Positions 1,532 through 10,668 of a stretch of DNA of 12,617 nt are shown here, in pieces (position 1 is the stretch's first letter; each line of letters starts with the position of its first letter). The translations under genes were made by a program, and so were the position numbers. Origin of the DNA: a virus (Duplodnaviria > Heunggongvirae > Uroviricota > Caudoviricetes); the IMG/VR virus record IMGVR_UViG_646862323_000004; one strand, 5' to 3'. The notes under the pieces were generated by a model. That model did not search any database. It worked only from the letters and a program-made list of their open reading frames with translations, and had not been told where the DNA came from.

Positions 1532-1741
1532 TTAATTTGAATACAATGCAATTCTCGAGGACTGAAGTTTCTCGCAATTAAAATTTATCAGTTTTACTTT
1601 CTGCTCTCTGGAAACGCCTGCTTCTTTTTTACCTGAGAGCATTTTTTCGCATTCTGATTTCGTTAGTTTAGATTTTGAATATCTTGTCCAGTTAGTAGGA
1701 GTGCCACCTTCCTTTTCAATAGTGGCGGTAATTTTATACAT
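1532..1741 (-). CDS. ydaC: YdaC-like small protein (DUF1187), 69 aa
   Basis: Minus-strand ORF. Start assigned to the ATG at 1741-1739 (MYKITATIEKEGG...) because longer starts would overlap ralR by about 80 nt; the product is then the 69 aa I recall for YdaC. Confidence 0.72.
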   Translation of the reverse strand: MYKITATIEKEGGTPTNWTRYSKSKLTKSECEKMLSGKKEAGVSREQKVKLINFNCEKLQSSRIALYSN

Positions 1742-1984: not shown

Positions 1985-2794
1985 TTATTCCTCTGAATTA
2001 TCGATTACACTGTATTCCCCGGTTAATACAGAGGAATCTGCAGGATCGATTGTCAGTGGTTCCTTTTCATCCATTGATACTGCACGCTGGATCTCAATTG
2101 ATACGGGCAGATATTTGAACAGGCGACGAATAGCCGTTTTCTTTGCCATTTCTTCCCAGTGAGTTACCCACGGCCCGTTATTACCAGCTTTACTCAGGCT
2201 GCGCACCAGCTCAATCTGTTTGCGCGTCATAACTTCAAACTGAGTACCTCCGTCTTTCAGTCTTGCGACAGCATAGACGTGGGTAACCGGGGCATCTTCG
2301 TTTTCTCCCGGGCGGTGTATTAACTTTTCATCAAGGCCAAATTCGAAGCTAAACTCGTCACCTTCACGGACAACACGGGCTGACAGGCTGGCGATTTGAC
2401 CAGAACGGCGAGCCAGATCAATCATGCCGCGATAGCCAATGATTAGCTGAACGTTCTTTTTACCGCTCTTTTCGTTTTTATTACCAAAAGGCAGTAAATA
2501 TGCATGACCGAGGGCGCTACCTGGCTCAAGTCCGAGCTGTGAACACTGTACGATCGCACTGACAAAACTCATAGTGTCACAGTTTCCTAACGCCGGAACT
2601 TTACGAATTTCTGTGGTGGCGATACGGATCATACGTTCAGCCGTCATATGGCGTGGAAGAGCTGCTGCCAGTTGCTCTTTCATTGATGGCTGGTTAATAA
2701 AACTAATCACGTCGCTATTTTTAACTGCTGCTGGTGCACGGTTTCCCTGAGTTTTTTGCAGATCGGCTTTTGCGATTGGTGGTTGCTTAGTCAT
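1985..2794 (-). CDS. recT: RecT single-strand annealing protein, 269 aa
   Basis: ORF translation from the ATG at 2794-2792 ([17 protein letters not shown]...) matches my recollection of RecT over its whole length. The track ORF has 19 extra upstream codons. Confidence 0.93.
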
Positions 2795-3629
2795 TTGCAT
2801 ATTCCTTAGCCCAGCGGGGTAGTGATAATGTCTTAATAGCTGGCCATTCATCGGTATTCAGGCAGTCAGACAGGGTTCGCAGATTGCGGTGATATTCCTG
2901 TTGACCTGCCAGTTTTGCTTCTTCGCCCATCATGAAAATTTCAACCGGATAACGTCCGCATTCAATAGTTGTGCTGGCAACCAGAAAAACGAAAGTTGGC
3001 TGCACTCCAAACTGTGCTTCATAACCGTCACTGTAGAATGCATCCTGAACGTGATAGCGGTAGTCGTAATAAGCGGTTTTGAATCGTTGAATATCCGCCG
3101 TAGTTTTCACGTCCATGATCCAGTGAAATTCAGGGATAATTTTGTCCGGACGGCACCGACACAAAATTCCTGTTTCAGGATCTTCCCAGTAAATTGATGA
3201 TTCAGCGTGTCCGGCGCTTTCAACAAGCCATTGCCCCAGCGGCAAAGCCATAACGCTTTGATACATGAGTTCAATTTTCCGGCCTTCTTCCGCAGTGATA
3301 ACCGTTTTTCCTGTGCTTGCGCATTCCATCAGAAACGCTTTCTCTTCTTCTTTTCCGGCGTTTGTACGGCGGTTAAATTCAGGTGCTACGATAAAGCGGT
3401 TACTGAATTCTTCCGGTTCAAGTACCCGGCAGTGGAAAGCAGTTCCTAAATCGAGCGTTTTTGTCTTTGTGGTGTCCACGGGGGCATTTTTACGCCACAA
3501 ATATAGTGCCGGAGTATCAGCAATGTCATCGAGCTGAGACTTACTGATACCGGGACCCGCGTGGTAATTCTCATTCGAAATTCCGTAATAAATACCTGGC
3601 TCTATGTCTTCTACGATTTTAGTTCCCAT
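2787..3629 (-). CDS. recE: RecE C-terminal exonuclease-domain ORF, 280 aa, out of frame with the recE N-terminal fragment
   Basis: Translation (…[23 protein letters not shown]...[13 protein letters not shown]) corresponds to roughly the last 280 residues of the 866-aa RecE as I recall it. It begins with an ATG at 3629-3627 created by the junction, with no clear Shine-Dalgarno upstream. Confidence 0.8.
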
Positions 3630-3886
3630 GTCATGGAGTCTTTGCTGAGTTGATAGCGTTCACTCCAGGTAAAATCGATCTCACCTTCAGCGGGCAGGTC
3701 ATTAACGACAGGAAAATTCGTGGCAACAGCTTTAAAATAGCTGCTCAGTTTTTTACCTGACTTAACGATCAGGTAGTCCAGAGTGGCACAGGTCGATTCA
3801 AAATCGTTGCTTGCCCACAGGACGACGTCAGGTTCACCGGATGATTTTTTCGCTTTCCGTAACAGGAAGAGTGGTTTTGTGCTCAT
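3611..3886 (-). pseudogene. recE: RecE N-terminal fragment (about 90 aa) ending in a premature TAG after a deletion junction
   Basis: [24 protein letters not shown]...KDSMTWELK is the RecE N-terminus as I recall it, then S-stop. It overlaps the C-terminal ORF by 19 nt in a different frame, so about 500 codons of recE are missing. Confidence 0.72.
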
Positions 3887-3957
3887 TGTTTTTTAACCTC
3901 AACTCAGATTAAAATTCGTTTTGTTCAGTGAATGATCTTGCCGGATACACACTGTTC

Positions 3958-3989
3958 ATAGCCTGCGCCATACGCAGGCTATTTCTTTC
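3958..3989 (+). terminator. Perfect 10-bp hairpin (ATAGCCTGCG / CGCAGGCTAT, 5-nt loop) followed by TTCTTTC on the plus strand
   Basis: Read directly from the sequence at 3958-3982 with the T-rich run at 3983-3989. It lies between racC and recE, antisense to the operon. On the minus strand the stem is not followed by a U-tract. Confidence 0.3.
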
Positions 3990-4263
3990 AGATTTCACCT
4001 TTTAATTTCATTGCAATTAGAGTTGCCAGAAATTCGGCTTTTTTTTCTGCGGGCAGATTCTTTCCGATATGCACCAGGCACATTTTTTTGACACCTTCAT
4101 CAAGTGTTTTTACGTTGCCTGATGGACCATCGATATCAACCACAGTGAATGGGGTTTCTTTATTTTCTGTTTTAATTACGTAGCCAATGCGCTTTCCTTC
4201 CAGATTCACCTCGTGAACAATGTCATCGGTAGTTACAACAGTGGCTTCATAATTGGTAATCAT
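3988..4263 (-). CDS. racC: RacC, 91 aa
   Basis: ATG at 4263-4261 is preceded by AAGGAG at 7-nt spacing. The translation (MITNYEATVVTTDDIVHEVNLEGKR...) matches my recollection of RacC. The track ORF starts 16 codons upstream at an ATG with no ribosome-binding site. Confidence 0.85.
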   Translation of the reverse strand: MITNYEATVVTTDDIVHEVNLEGKRIGYVIKTENKETPFTVVDIDGPSGNVKTLDEGVKKMCLVHIGKNLPAEKKAEFLATLIAMKLKGEI

Positions 4264-4337
4264 GTTTTTCTCCTTAATTAAGGTTGAGCGAATACCTGCC
4301 ATTTCTGGCATAAATTCAGTTTCGAATAGTCAATTAA

Positions 4338-4508
4338 TTAAAGTTCATGTGCCATCTGGTCTTTTTCGGCACAAGCTTCACTGCAATATTTTCTCGGTTC
4401 GTCTTTTGATAAAATCCCGTGCATGAAGTGAAGCATTCTTTCAATAGCTTTGCTTTCTTCAACGTCTTTTTTGCAAAGGTGGTAAGCACATTTTATTTTC
4501 TTAGTCAT
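4338..4508 (-). CDS. ydaE: YdaE-like Cys-containing small protein, 56 aa
   Basis: Hand-translated ORF absent from the track: [56 protein letters not shown]. Its ATG at 4508-4506 overlaps the kilR stop (ATGA). Confidence 0.72.
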   Translation of the reverse strand: MTKKIKCAYHLCKKDVEESKAIERMLHFMHGILSKDEPRKYCSEACAEKDQMAHEL

Positions 4509-4729
4509 CACCATGACTCCGCCTTTACAGGTAAACCATCACGACCGAGGAAGACTTTAATCATGCGGTCAGTAATGCATGTTTTTGTGGTCAGGTTACG
4601 AATATATAGTTTTCGCTTTTTAATATTGTTTGCCGAGGCAATATATGTCCGGCCTTCATGAAGAACATAATCGCCAGGAGTCACACACTGACGTGGTATT
4701 TCATCAGTTCCGAAGTGATGTGCAATCAT
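4508..4729 (-). CDS. kilR: KilR, 73 aa (FtsZ-targeting cell-division inhibitor)
   Basis: ATG at 4729-4727 is preceded by GGAG. The translation ([26 protein letters not shown]...) matches my recollection of Rac KilR in sequence and length. Confidence 0.88.
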
Positions 4730-5170
4730 AATTATCTCCATTTTTACAAATGAACTTTGTTGATGCGGTGCCTGGTGCCTCCAGGTGACTGCAACCAGTT
4801 AACAATTACAGTCGGCTTTCCCACCCAAACCAATAAGGACTAACATGACTTTTAACTGTGCCACGTGCGCTTAGCCGCATTCACCGCATCACAAAATTCA
4901 CTTTAAAAAGGGCGGACATCAGCCGAACTTCAAGAAAAAAACTGATGCCGCCAGGACTACACACAGCAATGTCGTTATTTACAACCGGAGGCGCACTCCC
5001 ACCATTTAAATTTAACAGACAAGACCGACTCTTTATGGATATCGGAAATGCGCCTTCGTGTTGTGCCCGGTTTTATTTCACCACCTCCGGGCTTCGGTGG
5101 TCTCGGCTATACCCCTACAGCGAGAGCTTGTGTTAACATTTCAATACCCTTACAGTTGAGAGTTATTGAT

Positions 5171-5659
5171 ATGTTGGATGTATTTACTCCATTGTTGAAA
5201 CTTTTTGCTAACGAGCCACTCGAAAGACTTATGTATACGATTATCATTTTTGGTCTCACTCTCTGGCTGATACCGAAAGAGTTTACTGTCGCATTCAATG
5301 CTTATACTGAAATACCTTGGCTCTTTCAGATTATCGTTTTTGCCTTTTCTTTCGTGGTCGCCATTTCCTTCTCAAGATTGCGAGCGCATATTCAAAAGCA
5401 TTATTCATTACTACCAGAGCAACGAGTATTGCTTCGTTTATCTGAGAAAGAAATCGCTGTATTTAAAGATTTCCTTAAAACAGGAAATCTTATTATCACT
5501 TCTCCTTGCCGTAACCCGGTTATGAAAAAATTAGAACGGAAGGGCATCATTCAACATCAGAGTGATAGCGCAAACTGTTCTTATTATCTCGTCACCGAAA
5601 AATACTCCCATTTTATGAAGTTATTCTGGAACAGCAGGAGTAGACGTTTTAATCGTTAG
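5171..5659 (+). CDS. sieB: Superinfection exclusion protein SieB, 162 aa, membrane protein
   Basis: Translation from the ATG at 5171 (MLDVFTPLLKLFANEPLERLMYTIIIFGLTLWLIP...) is 162 aa with hydrophobic helices. The 41 upstream codons of the track ORF look non-coding. Confidence 0.9.
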   Translation: MLDVFTPLLKLFANEPLERLMYTIIIFGLTLWLIPKEFTVAFNAYTEIPWLFQIIVFAFSFVVAISFSRLRAHIQKHYSLLPEQRVLLRLSEKEIAVFKDFLKTGNLIITSPCRNPVMKKLERKGIIQHQSDSANCSYYLVTEKYSHFMKLFWNSRSRRFNR

Positions 5660-5811
5660 CTTACTGTGTGCTTCTCCAACCATCGGCGCGCACCAGTTTC
5701 GGTTTTAAATGTTTTGCTTTTGGTATACGTCATGGCAGTGAACGTTCCATCCTGGTTGGGGAACACGCCGCACACCAGGGATTCGTTGTTGCCGAGGTCG
5801 ATTTTTTGCAT
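5656..5811 (-). CDS. ydaF: YdaF-like small protein, 51 aa
   Basis: Hand-translated ORF absent from the track: MQKIDLGNNESLVCGVFPNQDGTFTAMTYTKSKTFKTETGARRWLEKHTVS. Its stop overlaps the convergent sieB stop. Confidence 0.72.
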   Translation of the reverse strand: MQKIDLGNNESLVCGVFPNQDGTFTAMTYTKSKTFKTETGARRWLEKHTVS

Positions 5812-5821
5812 TTTTCGCACC

Positions 5822-5956
5822 TCACATCTTGTTGTTGCGGATAGAGGCTTCTGCTTGCCAGAGATCCCAGTCGTTGCTACGTAAAGCCTGCACAGCCGGG
5901 CTGTAAGTGATACCGCAACAATCCATCAAATACTGAACTACTTCGTAATGCACCAT
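5822..5956 (-). CDS. ydaG: YdaG-like small protein, 44 aa
   Basis: Hand-translated ORF absent from the track: [52 protein letters not shown] ribosome-binding site lies 7 nt upstream of the ATG at 5956-5954. Confidence 0.72.
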
Positions 5957-5978
5957 CTTATCTCTCCCCTTAACGCCG

Positions 5979-6167
5979 GGTGTCGCCTATGGCACCTCCG
6001 CAGGCAGTGCTGGCTACTGGTTTTTACAGTTGCTCGATAGAGTCACGCCCTCACAGTGGGCAGCAATAGGTGTGCTGGGTAGTCTGGTGTTTGGCCTGTT
6101 GACGTATCTGACAAATCTTTATTTCAAGATTAAAGAAGATAAGCGTAAGGCTGCACGGGGAGAGTAA
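5979..6167 (+). pseudogene. 5'-truncated class II pinholin (phage 21 S21 / EssD-like); first 9 or so codons and the start codon missing
   Basis: The in-frame translation [62 protein letters not shown]-stop matches S21 residues 10-71 as I recall them. There is no ATG, GTG or TTG start in frame after the upstream stop at 5946. Confidence 0.75.
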
Positions 6168-6171
6168 TTCA

Positions 6172-6516
6172 ATGACTCAAAACTATGAACTGATTGTGAA
6201 AGGGATCCGCAATTTTGAGAATAAAGTTACGGTAACTTTAGCGTTACGGGACAAAAAACGCTTTGACGGTGAAATTTTAGACCTGGACATCTCGCTGGAC
6301 CGTGTTGAAGGTGCCGCGCTGGAGTTTTATGAGGCAGCAGCCAGAAGGAGCATCAGACAGGTCTTCCTGGATGTTGCTGCAGGGTTATGTGAAGGGGATG
6401 AGCAGTCACCGGAAAAGCGCCCCATAATTTTAGAGGCGCAGGGTGTGTGGATAACCTACAAAGGAAAACTGCCGGGAAGAATTACTGGTTCACTGAAGAC
6501 TCCGCCGAAATGGTAA
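6172..6516 (+). CDS. DUF1327-family protein (Qin YdfR-like), 114 aa, in the lysis cassette
   Basis: ATG at 6172 lies 5 nt after the pinholin stop. The translation (MTQNYELIVKGIRNFENKVTVTLALRDKKRFDGE...) resembles the YdfR family found between holin and endolysin genes in Qin-type prophages. Confidence 0.78.
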   Translation: MTQNYELIVKGIRNFENKVTVTLALRDKKRFDGEILDLDISLDRVEGAALEFYEAAARRSIRQVFLDVAAGLCEGDEQSPEKRPIILEAQGVWITYKGKLPGRITGSLKTPPKW

Positions 6517-6754
6517 TTTCACCAGCATATTTTTCTTCCAGTAATACCGCCAGCCACTTGAAAGAATTTTGTTGTTGCTGGGACCATTTGGGGTTGAGTG
6601 ATTCAAGCTGGAGCGATGCCAGTGTTGGTTGCATTTGTTCCTTGGGAATTGAGAATGCCAGATATGAAAATGCGACAGTAAGGGCATTTACATCATCCCG
6701 AAGCTTGGAAATGCAGTCGAGCAACTCCTGTAGAGAAATGGTGCTATTGTCCAT
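6482..6754 (-). CDS. Hypothetical 90-aa protein of predicted helical character, convergent with and overlapping the DUF1327 gene
   Basis: ATG at 6754-6752 is preceded by GAGAGGA at about 7-nt spacing. Codon usage is coding-like, whereas the competing plus-strand ORF 6447-6779 translates to Ser/Cys-rich junk. I recognise no family. Confidence 0.45.
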   Translation of the reverse strand: MDNSTISLQELLDCISKLRDDVNALTVAFSYLAFSIPKEQMQPTLASLQLESLNPKWSQQQQNSFKWLAVLLEEKYAGEITISAESSVNQ

Positions 6755-6859
6755 AAACAATCCTCTCTATTGTATTTAACTATTCCTTGCCTGATTCAAC
6801 AGGCCGGGACAGATAAACATATCCAGGGTTCAGAAACCGATAAATCCTGATAAATATCC

Positions 6860-7393
6860 ATGAACGCAAAAATCAGATACGGCCTGTCGGCTGCCGTTCT
6901 GGCACTGATTGCCGTCGGTGCGCCTGCGCCTGATATTCTCGACCAGTTTCTGGATGAAAAAGAAGGTAACCACACAACGGCATACCGCGATGGTTCCGGT
7001 ATATGGACCATCTGTCGTGGTGCCACAATGGTGGATGGTAAGCCCGTCATACCGGGAATGAGGCTGTCGAAGGAAAAATGCGACCAGGTTAACGCTATTG
7101 AACGTGATAAGGCGCTGGCATGGGTGGAGCGCAATATTAAAGTACCACTGACCGAACCACAGAAAGCGGGTATAGCGTCATTTTGTCCCTATAACATTGG
7201 CCCCGGTAAGTGTTTCCCGTCGACGTTTTATAAGCGGCTGAATGCCGGTGATCGTAAGGGTGCATGCGAGGCGATTCGCTGGTGGATAAAAGATGGTGGG
7301 CGCGATTGCCGCATACGTTCAAATAACTGCTATGGACAGGTTATTCGTCGTGACCAGGAAAGCGCATTAGCCTGTTGGGGGATAGATCAGTGA
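6860..7393 (+). CDS. SAR endolysin (phage lysozyme, T4-lysozyme/GH24 type; R21/RrrD-like), 177 aa
   Basis: N-terminal Gly/Ala-rich signal-anchor-release segment ([17 protein letters not shown]) followed by the E...D...T catalytic motif ([18 protein letters not shown]). No Shine-Dalgarno is visible upstream of the ATG. Confidence 0.9.
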
Positions 7394-7854
7394 GCAGAGT
7401 CGCCGCGATTATTTATGCTCTGGTTATCTGCATCATCGTCTGCCTGTCATGGGCTGTTAATCATTACCGTGATAACGCCACCGCCTACAAAGAGCAGCGC
7501 GACAAAAATGCCAGAGAACTGAAGCTGGCGAACGCGGCAATTACTGACATGCAGATGCGTCAGCGTGATGTTGCTGCGCTCGATGCAAAATACACGAAGG
7601 AGTTAGCTGATGCGAAAGCTGAAAATGATGCTCTGCGTGATGATGTTGCCGCTGGTCGTCGTCGGTTGCACATCAAAGCAGTCTGTCAGTCAGTGCGTGA
7701 AGCCACCACCGCCTCCGGCGTGGATAATGCAGCCTCCCCCCGACTGGCAGACACCGCTGAACGGGATTATTTCACCCTCCGGGAACGACTGGTAATGATG
7801 CAGGCCCAACTTGAAGGTGCTCAGCAATACATAACCGAACAGTGTTTAAAGTAA
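7390..7854 (+). CDS. rzpR: Rz-type i-spanin, 154 aa from a GTG start overlapping the endolysin stop (GTGA)
   Basis: N-terminal transmembrane helix ([19 protein letters not shown]) followed by a charged coiled-coil region. The track ORF starts 5 codons upstream at a TTG. Confidence 0.85.
7610..7795 (+). CDS. rzoR: Rz1-type o-spanin lipoprotein, 61 aa, nested in the +1 frame of Rz
   Basis: AAGGAG ribosome-binding site before the ATG. Signal peptide with lipobox (LVVVGC) and a proline-rich mature region ([15 protein letters not shown]), entirely embedded within the Rz gene. Confidence 0.88.
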
Positions 7855-7991
7855 AATCTTAACTACAATATGATTCATTTTGATGATTGTTTCATAAGGA
7901 ACAGTGAAGTAAGATCTAAGAGGAGTTAAATTTTATACAGTATAATCATAATATTGCAGCAAGGTGGTTATAATTGAAAGAATATTTAGAT

Positions 7992-9450
7992 ATGAATACA
8001 TCTCATGTAAGAGTTGTTACTCATATGTGTGGGTTCCTGGTTTGGCTCTATAGTCTTTCAATGTTGCCACCAATGGTTGTAGCATTGTTTTATAAAGAAA
8101 AAAGCCTATTCGTTTTCTTTATAACTTTCGTTATATTTTTTTGTCATTGGTGGCGGAGCGTGGTATACAACTAAGAAATCTGGCATTCAATTACGTACCC
8201 GTGATGGGTTTATTATAATTGTAATGTTTTGGATTTTGTTTTCTGTTATTAGTGCATTCCCTTTATGGATTGACTCAGAACTTAATTTAACGTTCATTGA
8301 TGCTCTGTTTGAAGGGGTTTCTGGAATAACAACAACAGGAGCAACTGTAATTGATGATGTTAGTTCATTACCTCGGGCATATTTGTACTATCGGTCACAG
8401 TTAAATTTTATAGGTGGTTTAGGAGTTATTGTTCTGGCGGTTGCTGTATTGCCATTATTGGGTATTGGTGGTGCAAAGCTTTATCAGTCAGAAATGCCGG
8501 GGCCATTTAAGGATGACAAACTCACTCCCCGCCTGGCCGATACGTCACGGACACTGTGGATAACTTATTCTTTATTAGGTATTGCTTGTATTGTCTGTTA
8601 TAGACTTGCAGGAATGCCTTTGTTTGATGCTATTTGTCACGGGATTTCCACAGTTTCGCTTGGTGGTTTCTCAACTCATAGCGAGAGTATCGGATATTTT
8701 AATAACTATTTGGTTGAGCTGGTGGCTGGTTCTTTTTCCCTGCTATCGGCTTTCAACTTCACTCTTTGGTATATTGTTATTAGCAGGAAAACGATAAAAC
8801 CTTTAATCAGAGATATTGAACTTCGTTTCTTTCTGTTAATAGCCTTAGGGGTGATCATTGTTACCTCTTTCCAGGTCTGGCATATAGGTATGTATGACTT
8901 GCATGGAAGTTTTATTCATTCGTTTTTTCTTGCCAGCTCCATGCTCACTGATAATGGTTTAGCTACGCAGGATTATGCAAGCTGGCCCACGCACACGATA
9001 GTGTTTTTGCTGTCGTCAAGTTTCTTTGGGGGATGTATAGGTTCAACTTGTGGTGGAATTAAGTCACTTCGATTTCTTATACTTTTCAAACAAAGCAAAC
9101 ACGAGATAAATCAGCTTTCTCATCCCAGAGCGTTGTTGAGTGTAAATGTAGGAGGGAAGATAGTTACAGATCGTGTAATGAGGTCTGTATGGAGTTTCTT
9201 TTTTCTTTATACTCTCTTCACGGTGTTTTTTATACTGGTGTTAAATGGTATGGGATATGATTTTCTTACATCATTTGCAACAGTGGCTGCATGTATTAAT
9301 AATATGGGATTAGGTTTTGGGGCTACTGCATCGTCATTCGGAGTGCTTAATGACATTGCAAAATATTTAATGTGCATAGCTATGATTCTTGGTCGCCTTG
9401 AAATTTATCCTGTTATTATATTGTTTTCAGGTTTTTTTTGGCGCTCCTAA
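7992..9450 (+). pseudogene. trkG: TrkG potassium-uptake protein gene disrupted by a +1 frameshift (extra C near 8145)
   Basis: Frame 3 reads MNTSHVRVV...FVIFFC then HWWRSVVYN-stop (8172-8174). Frame 1 from 8146 reads IGGGAWYTTKKSGIQLRTRDGFIIIVMFW and continues to 9450. The span is 1459 nt, one more than 486 codons. The region is strongly AT-rich. Confidence 0.85.
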
Positions 9451-9532
9451 TATATGGCTGATTTATAATTGTGAGTTTAATATTATATTGACTCACTCAT
9501 TGATCCAATACCTAACTTTACCAGCAACACCT

Positions 9533-9570
9533 CCGCCCCCAGTAGCACTGGCTGCTGGGGTGCGTTTTAT
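9533..9570 (+). terminator. Candidate intrinsic terminator downstream of trkG
   Basis: Imperfect GC-rich stem (CGCCCCCAG ... CTGGGGTGCG) at about 9533-9564, followed by TTTTATTC. Read from the sequence; not energy-scored. Confidence 0.3.
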
Positions 9571-9587
9571 TCATAAAGCAAGGCTGT

Positions 9588-9983
9588 ATGAGCGAGAAAT
9601 TAAAGATAGTCTATCGCCCATTACAAGAATTGTCACCGTATGCGCACAACGCCAGGACGCACAGTACTGAGCAGGTGGCACAACTGGTAGAAAGTATTAA
9701 GCAATTCGGCTGGACTAATCCGGTGCTGATTGACGAAAAGGGCGAAATTATTGCGGGTCACGGTCGTGTTATGGCGGCTGAAATGCTCAAAATGGATTCT
9801 GTTCCGGTCATTGTTCTGGCCGGAGATACAACCTACAGGGAATGGTTTTTGCGTCAGCCTTACACCAGACAAAAACAGATTGTGGGGGAAACCCGGGCAA
9901 AGCTGATTCGGGATGGCGGTATGTCGCCAGATGAATTTTACACCGATAAAGGCGAATACCCGGATCGCAACAGTAAGCGGTAA
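9588..9983 (+). CDS. ynaK: YnaK-like ParB/Srx-type N-terminal domain ORF, 131 aa, with an aberrant C-terminal extension
   Basis: The first 80 or so residues (…IIAGHGRVMAAEMLKMDSVPVIVLAG) look like a ParB N-terminal nuclease-like fold. The remainder (DTTYREWFLRQPYTRQ...) has no ParB character and overlaps the next ORF. Confidence 0.68.
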   Translation: MSEKLKIVYRPLQELSPYAHNARTHSTEQVAQLVESIKQFGWTNPVLIDEKGEIIAGHGRVMAAEMLKMDSVPVIVLAGDTTYREWFLRQPYTRQKQIVGETRAKLIRDGGMSPDEFYTDKGEYPDRNSKR

Positions 9984-10668
9984 TACATCCCTTATAACAG
10001 CCAAAGCTGAACAACAGGGCGAGTGGACCTACTATGAGGCCACTTATACAGCTAATACGGACATTGATACCGTTAACTGTGCTTTTTATATGACAAATAA
10101 AATAAGTAATGAGCCATTCTATGATGACTCAACATTAACCATGACGACGCCGCAAATTGAACTGGGCAATACGGCATCGTCATTTATTGTAACTACAATG
10201 CCAACAACACGCGCAAGTGATGTGGTTACTATCCCCTCGGCGAATAACCTGTCAACACGGCCTTTTACAGTATTGTGCGAAGTAAGGAGGAACTGGAGTA
10301 CACCGCCCAATGTTGCGCCAAGGATATTTGATGTTGGAGGGCACAGTATTGATGATAATTATTTATCGCTGGGGTTTGTTTCAACAGGAAAGATAAGCGC
10401 CAACGTAGGAATGGTTCAGCCACAAATTTCCTCAGATGGAGAAAGGTTCATTGTGGGTGTGAGAGCTAAATCTGATTTATCAGTAAATGCAATATGCAAT
10501 GGTAATTATACAACAAACCTTAATGGTAAAATATTTGGAGTTACAGCAACATCGTACCGGTTTGGTGGGCAGACCGCAGCAGGAACGCGTCATTTGTTTG
10601 GACACATCAGAAATTTCAGAGTCTGGTTTAAAGAATTAAATGACAGGCAAATCAAGGAGGCAGTATGA
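9913..10668 (+). CDS. Tail-fibre-like protein fragment, 251 aa, with a C-terminal concanavalin-A/LamG-like jelly-roll domain; probably 5'-truncated
   Basis: Thr/Ser/Asn-rich beta-type composition. The C-terminus (...RFGGQTAAGTRHLFGHIRNFRVWFKELNDRQIKEAV) resembles the end of LamG-type domains. No Shine-Dalgarno precedes any in-frame Met; an in-frame stop lies at 9904-9906. Confidence 0.5.
   Translation: MAVCRQMNFTPIKANTRIATVSGNTSLITAKAEQQGEWTYYEATYTANTDIDTVNCAFYMTNKISNEPFYDDSTLTMTTPQIELGNTASSFIVTTMPTTRASDVVTIPSANNLSTRPFTVLCEVRRNWSTPPNVAPRIFDVGGHSIDDNYLSLGFVSTGKISANVGMVQPQISSDGERFIVGVRAKSDLSVNAICNGNYTTNLNGKIFGVTATSYRFGGQTAAGTRHLFGHIRNFRVWFKELNDRQIKEAV

Follow-up and report, generated by a model that had tools for sequence, protein, structure and literature searches.

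The window analysed here, a stretch of 12,617 bases, corresponds to the cryptic Rac prophage of E. coli BL21(DE3) (NC_012971.2:1397168–1409783) except for one inserted base, and it was also matched over its whole length in about 30 BL21-derived complete genomes. Its left end, where intR and xisR lie, adjoins ttcA, and it carries recT, recE, racC, ydaE, kilR, sieB, ydaF and ydaG on the left and trkG on the right (99.3–99.9% DNA identity), as expected for a member of the Rac group. The RefSeq annotation gives the order ttcA, intR, xisR, rcbA, ralR, recT, recE (split), racC, ydaE, kilR, sieB and ydaF on the left, followed on the right by a hypothetical gene (ydaG), essD, a YdfR-family gene, a hypothetical gene, the lysozyme gene, a lysis protein gene, trkG, ynaK', tail-fibre fragments, pinR and ydfK. 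The Rac prophage of K-12 MG1655 (b1345–b1375) occupies the same ttcA site and shares the left arm (int, xis, rcbA, ralR and recT to ydaG) at 99.3–99.9% identity; the two prophages also have trkG, ynaK, pinR and ynaE in common on the right, and both lack Q and the late promoter. The only Rfam match over the window was the sRNA RalA, the antitoxin of the type I toxin–antitoxin system RalR/RalA, which is present at full length (1557–1735, plus strand; RF02694, 225 bits).

The left-arm genes nearest to the locus of interest are well preserved. The gene encoding the FtsZ/MreB inhibitor KilR (4508..4729, minus strand; phrog_294 'Kil protein', E=4.6e-37; also annotated in RefSeq) is intact, and its product is identical to K-12 KilR at 72 of 73 residues. 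The KilS sRNA, in the kilR 5' UTR, is retained at 4905..5002 (minus strand), as mapped from K-12 positions 1,418,405–1,418,502. Published start-site data indicate an independent promoter for KilS (PMC8175672), with a start at about window position 5002; the region 4720–5080 is identical to K-12 at 360 of 361 positions, and an extended −10 element (TGtTAAATT) ends at 5009, seven nucleotides upstream of the mapped KilS 5' end. Two further intact genes, both annotated in RefSeq, follow: sieB, for superinfection exclusion (5171..5659, plus strand; PF14163, E=3e-31), and ydaF (5656..5811, minus strand; DUF1391, PF07151, E=2.3e-28). The first remaining gene of the early-left operon is ydaG (5822..5956, minus strand; phrog_14709, E=1.8e-36), the product of which shares 39 of 44 residues with K-12 YdaG.

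Between the ATG of ydaG (5956–5954, minus strand) and a remnant of the pinholin gene essD there are only 22 nt, in agreement with a preliminary description of this DNA, which had placed the ydaG start about 20 bp from the beginning of the pinholin homology (at about 5979). These 22 nt (5957..5978, minus strand) are the last of the leader of the leftward transcript; they hold the ydaG ribosome-binding site (GGGGAGAG, minus strand) and are identical to positions 10458–10479 of the K-12 Rac sequence (hereafter L002). The breakpoint was set by a three-way alignment of the window with K-12 Rac, which provides the left flank, and with an apparently complete Rac-type prophage from strain 500111 (NZ_CM129039.1; hereafter L003), which provides both flanks. 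Similarity to K-12 Rac (99.3%) extends up to 5982 and returns only from 7417, with no K-12 similarity for 5983–7416, whereas the 500111 prophage matches the window at 3614–5802 (99.3%) and at 5970–9818 (99.5%). At the junction, K-12 reads CCCCTTAACGCCGGGTG followed by GCGGAAC, intact essD of 500111 reads GATAAGTTAACAACAGGTG followed by TCGCCTATGG, and the window reads CCCCTTAACGCCGGGTG followed by TCGCCTATGG. The tetranucleotide GGTG is present at both parental sites (L002 10480–10483 and L003 15997–16000) and only once in the window (5979..5982), without filler DNA. Since both flanks are collinear with a single undeleted relative and GGTG was kept once, the crossover can be placed within GGTG, so that the alignment with K-12 Rac and an intact relative, as proposed in the preliminary description, does define the breakpoint. 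GGTG is nested in an imperfect match of 10 out of 13 positions (5970–5982; TTAACGCCGGGTG versus TTAACAACAGGTG). By our own arithmetic, a random junction would have a microhomology of at least 4 bp with a probability of about 0.016, and the microhomology is therefore suggestive, a hint at the recombination mechanism and not a proof of it. Neither a long repeat nor an IS element nor an att-like site was found at the junction, which would be consistent with an event independent of RecA and of site-specific recombinases.

The pinholin remnant, essD' (5979..6167, plus strand), consists of codons 10–71 and the stop codon of an S21-type gene. From Gly10 (codon 5979–5981) to the stop, it is identical to intact EssD of strain 500111 at all 62 residues, and Rac leader sequence stands in place of the first nine residues (MKSMDKLTT), which include both Met codons. 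The preliminary description had estimated that the start and about nine codons were removed, and the comparison with intact EssD gives exactly nine. The frame 5958–6167 matches the Pfam profile of phage 21 holin S (PF04971, class II holins) at positions 3–63 of 64 (E=5.6e-33) and, by sequence, essD' thus belongs to this family. In S21, the equivalent of EssD residues 10–71 contains the two membrane segments as well as the charged C-terminus. However, the canonical Met1/Met4 dual start and the ribosome-binding site of a functional S21-type pinholin are deleted in essD', there is no Q-dependent late promoter upstream, and no in-frame ATG, GTG or TTG occurs from the stop codon at 5946–5948 up to a TTG at 6030. 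RefSeq nevertheless records a 70-residue 'phage lysis protein EssD' (WP_012775985.1; 5955–6167), with an ATC start at 5955 that overlaps the ydaG start codon, and this entry looks like an over-annotated pseudogene. A chance in-frame match, TTAAC(G/A), imitates Leu7–Thr8 of EssD, and both the HMM and PGAP, the annotation pipeline of NCBI, therefore stretch the apparent essD towards the N-terminus. A promoter or fusion ORF created by the junction was looked for and none was found, the 70-residue essD being accounted for by the ATC start and the TTAAC(G/A) mimicry.

The lysis cassette to the right of the junction is otherwise intact. The DUF1327 gene ydfR (6172..6516, plus strand; PF07041, E=8e-42) had been described as dead, but its product has the same RefSeq accession (WP_000193293.1) in the complete prophage of strain 500111, and so does that of the phage lysozyme gene (6860..7393, plus strand; PF00959, E=1.3e-24; WP_000992105.1). 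The Rz spanin gene (7390..7854, plus strand; PF03245, E=9.4e-53) is truncated in K-12 and intact here, as is the embedded Rz1-like ORF (7610–7795). An antisense gene of unknown function (6482..6754, minus strand; phrog_2411, E=4.7e-59) lies inside the cassette, has a 35-nt overlap with the 3' end of ydfR and occupies the same position in strain 500111 and in phage Chlobot; right of the junction, no other gene is transcribed in the direction of ydaG. In a functional lambdoid late operon, Q and a late promoter stand upstream of the lysis cassette. Both are missing here, and ydfR, the lysozyme gene and Rz/Rz1 are thus intact genes without Q or a late promoter.

The 500111 prophage shows what has been lost. 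It carries, in order, recT, recE, racC, ydaE, kilR, sieB, ydaF, racR, ydaS, ydaT, ydaU, ydaV, DUF1627 and DUF977 genes, small ORFs, hokD, DUF968 and RusA genes, an antitermination protein gene, two hypothetical genes, essD, the YdfR gene, a hypothetical gene, the lysozyme gene, Rz, trkG and ynaK, and then the terminase, head and tail genes. The missing segment corresponds approximately to L003 4719–16000 (roughly 11.3 kb). On the immunity side, the loss comprises the OL/PL promoter–operator region, racR, the rightward promoter with its operators, the Cro-like ydaS and the CII-like ydaT; downstream of these, the replication genes ydaU and ydaV and a nin-like region including hokD, DUF968 and rusA; and, on the late side, the Q antiterminator and the two genes that follow Q, the late promoter region and the essD start. 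Pfam searches of this segment identified YdaS_toxin/P22_Cro, YdaT_toxin, DUF1376 (YdaU), an IstB/DnaA-type ATPase (YdaV), DUF968, RusA and Antiterm Q (PF03589, L003 13005–13826), and racR, hokD and the two genes after Q are annotated there. In the window, by contrast, no repressor or antiterminator family was matched among the ORFs of 5650–7134, the seven remaining small ORFs of this interval had no Pfam match, and the arrangement typical of the Rac immunity region (racR divergent from ydaS–ydaT, with RacR operators) is missing. Both the alignment and the Pfam results thus agree with the proposal that the immunity, replication and antitermination modules between ydaG and the pinholin are gone, and the profile search found no repressor or antiterminator gene hidden in the interval. 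Strain 500111 lacks ydaG and has GGGGTAG where K-12 has GGGTGG, which indicates that the true ancestor had a K-12-like left part and a 500111-like interior, and the size given for the deletion is accordingly an approximation.

We conclude that the interval is very probably the scar of one internal deletion of about 11 kb in the Rac lambdoid prophage, as the preliminary description had read it, fusing the early-left operon to the lysis cassette. An ancestor akin to the complete Rac-type prophage of strain 500111 would have lost about 11.3 kb, presumably by illegitimate recombination between one GGTG copy 23–26 nt upstream of the ydaG start codon and another in essD codons 10–11. The deletion would then have been fixed in a lineage including E. 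coli B (REL606 and BL21), leaving a prophage that could be neither induced nor replicated and the late genes of which would not be switched on.

Lambdoid phages are well known to have mosaic genomes, and S21-type holin/YdfR/lysozyme cassettes are common, with some match to window positions 5983–6900 in 5145 of 5426 complete E. coli genomes; the Rac left arm might therefore have been joined to the lysis cassette of a DLP12- or Qin-like prophage. We consider such a mosaic origin very unlikely. The right flank is collinear, in the same order (essD, ydfR, phrog_2411, lysozyme, Rz and then the Rac-specific trkG, and ynaK; 99.5%), with a single Rac-type prophage, that of strain 500111; its KilR and SieB proteins, encoded to the left, are identical to those of the window, as are its YdfR and lysozyme proteins. 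By contrast, the identity to the K-12 Qin cassette was only about 88%, over 48% of the query. It is this collinearity through trkG that disfavours a mosaic. Repeated prophage sequences can also yield misjoins of two prophage regions in short-read assemblies, a possibility raised in the preliminary description. With a coverage of at least 80%, the same junction was, however, detected in 63 of the 5426 complete E. coli genomes, mostly at 100% identity, and these independent genomes come from different laboratories and platforms, so that the probability of a misassembly is negligible and this explanation can be excluded. Besides REL606, several BL21(DE3) assemblies, ATCC 11303 and NCTC10537, the carriers include isolates of seawater, chicken and human origin and one from milk, labelled "C". 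The undeleted ydaG–racR arrangement is kept in 1084 genomes. In strain WB61 (NZ_CP020025.1, 2013765–2015573), matches to recE and racR fall within about 1.8 kb of one another, with ydaF and sieB annotated beneath, which suggests another, different internal Rac deletion variant.

The deletion removed regulatory DNA together with genes. In the K-12 spacer between ydaG and racR, we predict a leftward promoter, TTGACA-17-TATAGT (11 of 12 matches; L002 10655 to 10627), flanked by TAGGTAATGCCTAAT and TAGGCTATGCCTAAT (region L002 10627–10682). Both sequences fit the published RacR operator consensus, (T/A)TAGGC-n3-GCCTA(T/A) (PMC9638921). At the divergent racR/ydaS promoter of K-12, three copies of this motif are present, and a 35-nt inverted repeat relates the leftward promoter region to the rightward (racR/ydaS) promoter region. 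The promoter and its operators are predicted from the sequence and from K-12 RNA-seq; the papers on Rac consulted here describe only the three operators at racR/ydaS, and a 2025 paper on YdaT does not include a leftward promoter. When RacR is displaced in K-12, ydaG, ydaF, ydaE, racC, kilR and ydaC are upregulated 40–70-fold (PMC6765115). The predicted promoter and operators all lie to the right of L002 10483 and hence in the deleted DNA, and no RacR operator-like site was found in the window at up to two mismatches. The K-12 leader of the predicted leftward transcript (L002 10458–10622) is 85–90% conserved in many other E. coli prophages and folds only modestly better than shuffled sequences (z=−1.96); Rfam searches of this leader and the immunity region of K-12 produced no match at E≤1. 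As Rac lacks an obvious N gene, the K-12 leader could conceivably contain an RNA antitermination (put- or nut-like) element.

A racR homologue elsewhere in the genome, for which the preliminary description had advised a search, was not found at the DNA level: blastn with a BL21-specific tag and K-12 racR matched one place per BL21-lineage chromosome, corresponding to the tag only, and three places in K-12 records. This result agrees with the published observation that racR PCR from BL21(DE3) gave no product (PMC6765115). Since the operators are gone, more distant RacR relatives would bind nothing here. In K-12, racR is essential only owing to the toxicity of ydaS/ydaT (PMC5700373), and the loss of racR in the B lineage may have been tolerable because the repressor, ydaS/ydaT and the repressor-controlled ydaG–kilR promoter were all removed in one event.

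These findings bear on the control of kilR. It had been suggested that the toxic kilR gene escaped the control of any cognate repressor in cis; kilR is indeed kept and racR is absent, but the gene is not left uncontrolled by the loss of the repressor, since the predicted leftward promoter under RacR control was lost along with it. It is known that kilR is silenced by Rho/NusG and freed via OxyS (PMC12482147; PMC5793797), and in the B lineage the retained gene would be left with the KilS leader promoter and Rho/NusG-dependent silencing. Nor is kilR without racR paradoxical or rare. A K-12 laboratory construct deleted from sieB to ydaU, which has kilR but no racR, is viable, and in surveyed strains kilR was present in 48% and ydaS, always together with racR, in 34% (Krishnamurthi et al. 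2017, PMC5700373). Like the B-type prophage, this construct lacks racR, ydaS and ydaT and has an intact kilR; the two deletions differ in extent, the engineered deletion removing sieB, ydaF and ydaG and ending in ydaU, whereas the B-type deletion runs from upstream of ydaG to essD. The further suggestion that any promoter driving ydaG to int must sit in or beyond the lysis region can apply at most to ydaG and ydaF, as kilR has the KilS start. We infer that ydaG and ydaF are silent and that the KilS promoter is used in BL21.

It could still be argued that, as a result of the deletion, a promoter of the lysis cassette, with that of the phrog_2411 gene as the most plausible one, came to drive ydaG and ydaF, and that its transcripts read through into kilR and recET. 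Such rewiring is compatible with an internal deletion and could give repressor-independent expression that matters to the host. The phrog_2411 gene is intact and oriented towards ydaG, and a relaxed scan returned TTGAAT-19-TACAAT (6799 to 6769) as the best candidate promoter for it, with no intrinsic terminator detected between this candidate and ydaG. However, a 19-nt spacer is poor, and the candidate fails the standard promoter/terminator scan of 4400–7400, in which neither a minus-strand promoter nor, right of the junction, a terminator was detected. Moreover, the roughly 530 nt of untranslated antisense RNA from the phrog_2411 stop to ydaG would be a typical Rho substrate, and sieB is convergent with any such transcript. 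As the relaxed scan yielded weak candidates only, we claim no promoter right of the junction and regard the rewiring as unlikely. A further reading, also improbable, is a natural uncoupling in which kilR and recET, having lost the RacR-controlled leftward promoter, are expressed from the KilS promoter only, perhaps with phrog_2411 read-through, and gated by Rho/NusG. If this were true, B strains would run the OxyS–NusG–KilR division checkpoint without a prophage repressor, and B and K-12 would differ predictably in how they respond, in a KilR-dependent manner, to bicyclomycin, to peroxide and to proteins that displace RacR.

K-12 Rac has undergone a deletion of its own, of 8,990 bp (L003 8445–17434), from the DUF1627/ydaW gene into Rz. 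K-12 therefore lacks essD', ydfR, phrog_2411, the lysozyme gene and the 5' part of Rz (window 5983–7416), whereas it keeps 3.7 kb missing from the window (L002 10484–14202), with the leftward promoter region, racR, ydaS, ydaT, ydaU, ydaV and part of ydaW. The nin region, Q and the late promoter fall within both deletions, the endpoints of which differ (8445–17434 in K-12 and about 4719–16000 in B), and this indicates independent, overlapping events. Five nucleotides of unmatched filler are present at the K-12 joint (L002 14203–14207). Together with the K-12 deletion, the B-type scar provides a clean case of a prophage safely disarmed by the loss of its repressor plus all the targets of that repressor, and it explains the persistence of kilR without a cognate repressor. 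The absence of racR, ydaS and ydaT also explains why BL21-family hosts tolerate RacR displacers that kill K-12, such as C.Csp231I (PMC6765115).

The absence of racR from BL21(DE3) has already been published, and the junction is an instance of ordinary, documented prophage decay. Two papers that mention Rac with BL21 or REL606 do not treat this junction. Rac in B was probably first described in the comparison of the B and K-12 genomes by Studier and colleagues in 2009.

Three other changes were observed in the window. With respect to K-12 and REL606, recE has a 1501-bp internal deletion at 3614–3618, with a 5-bp overlap at the joint. It is out of frame and results in a 91-residue N-terminal ORF (3611–3886) and a 280-residue C-terminal nuclease ORF (2787–3629); among the top-ranked records, it was essentially restricted to BL21-derived genomes and was absent from REL606 and ATCC 11303. 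The base by which the window differs from BL21(DE3) is an inserted T at 8144 (TTTTTTTG followed by the additional T and CATTGG), as compared also with REL606, K-12 and strain 500111. It causes a frameshift that splits trkG into two ORFs (7974–8174 and 8224–9450), and this trkG frameshift was seen in this window only, the insertion occurring in none of the top-ranked complete genomes; in the milk isolate "C", another single base has been inserted, in the adjacent T-run (T8 instead of T7). Finally, a second BL21 deletion with respect to REL606, of about 2.5 kb, is located at 9956–9957, where the sequence that follows ynaK has become joined to a tail-fibre fragment (ORF 9913–10668).
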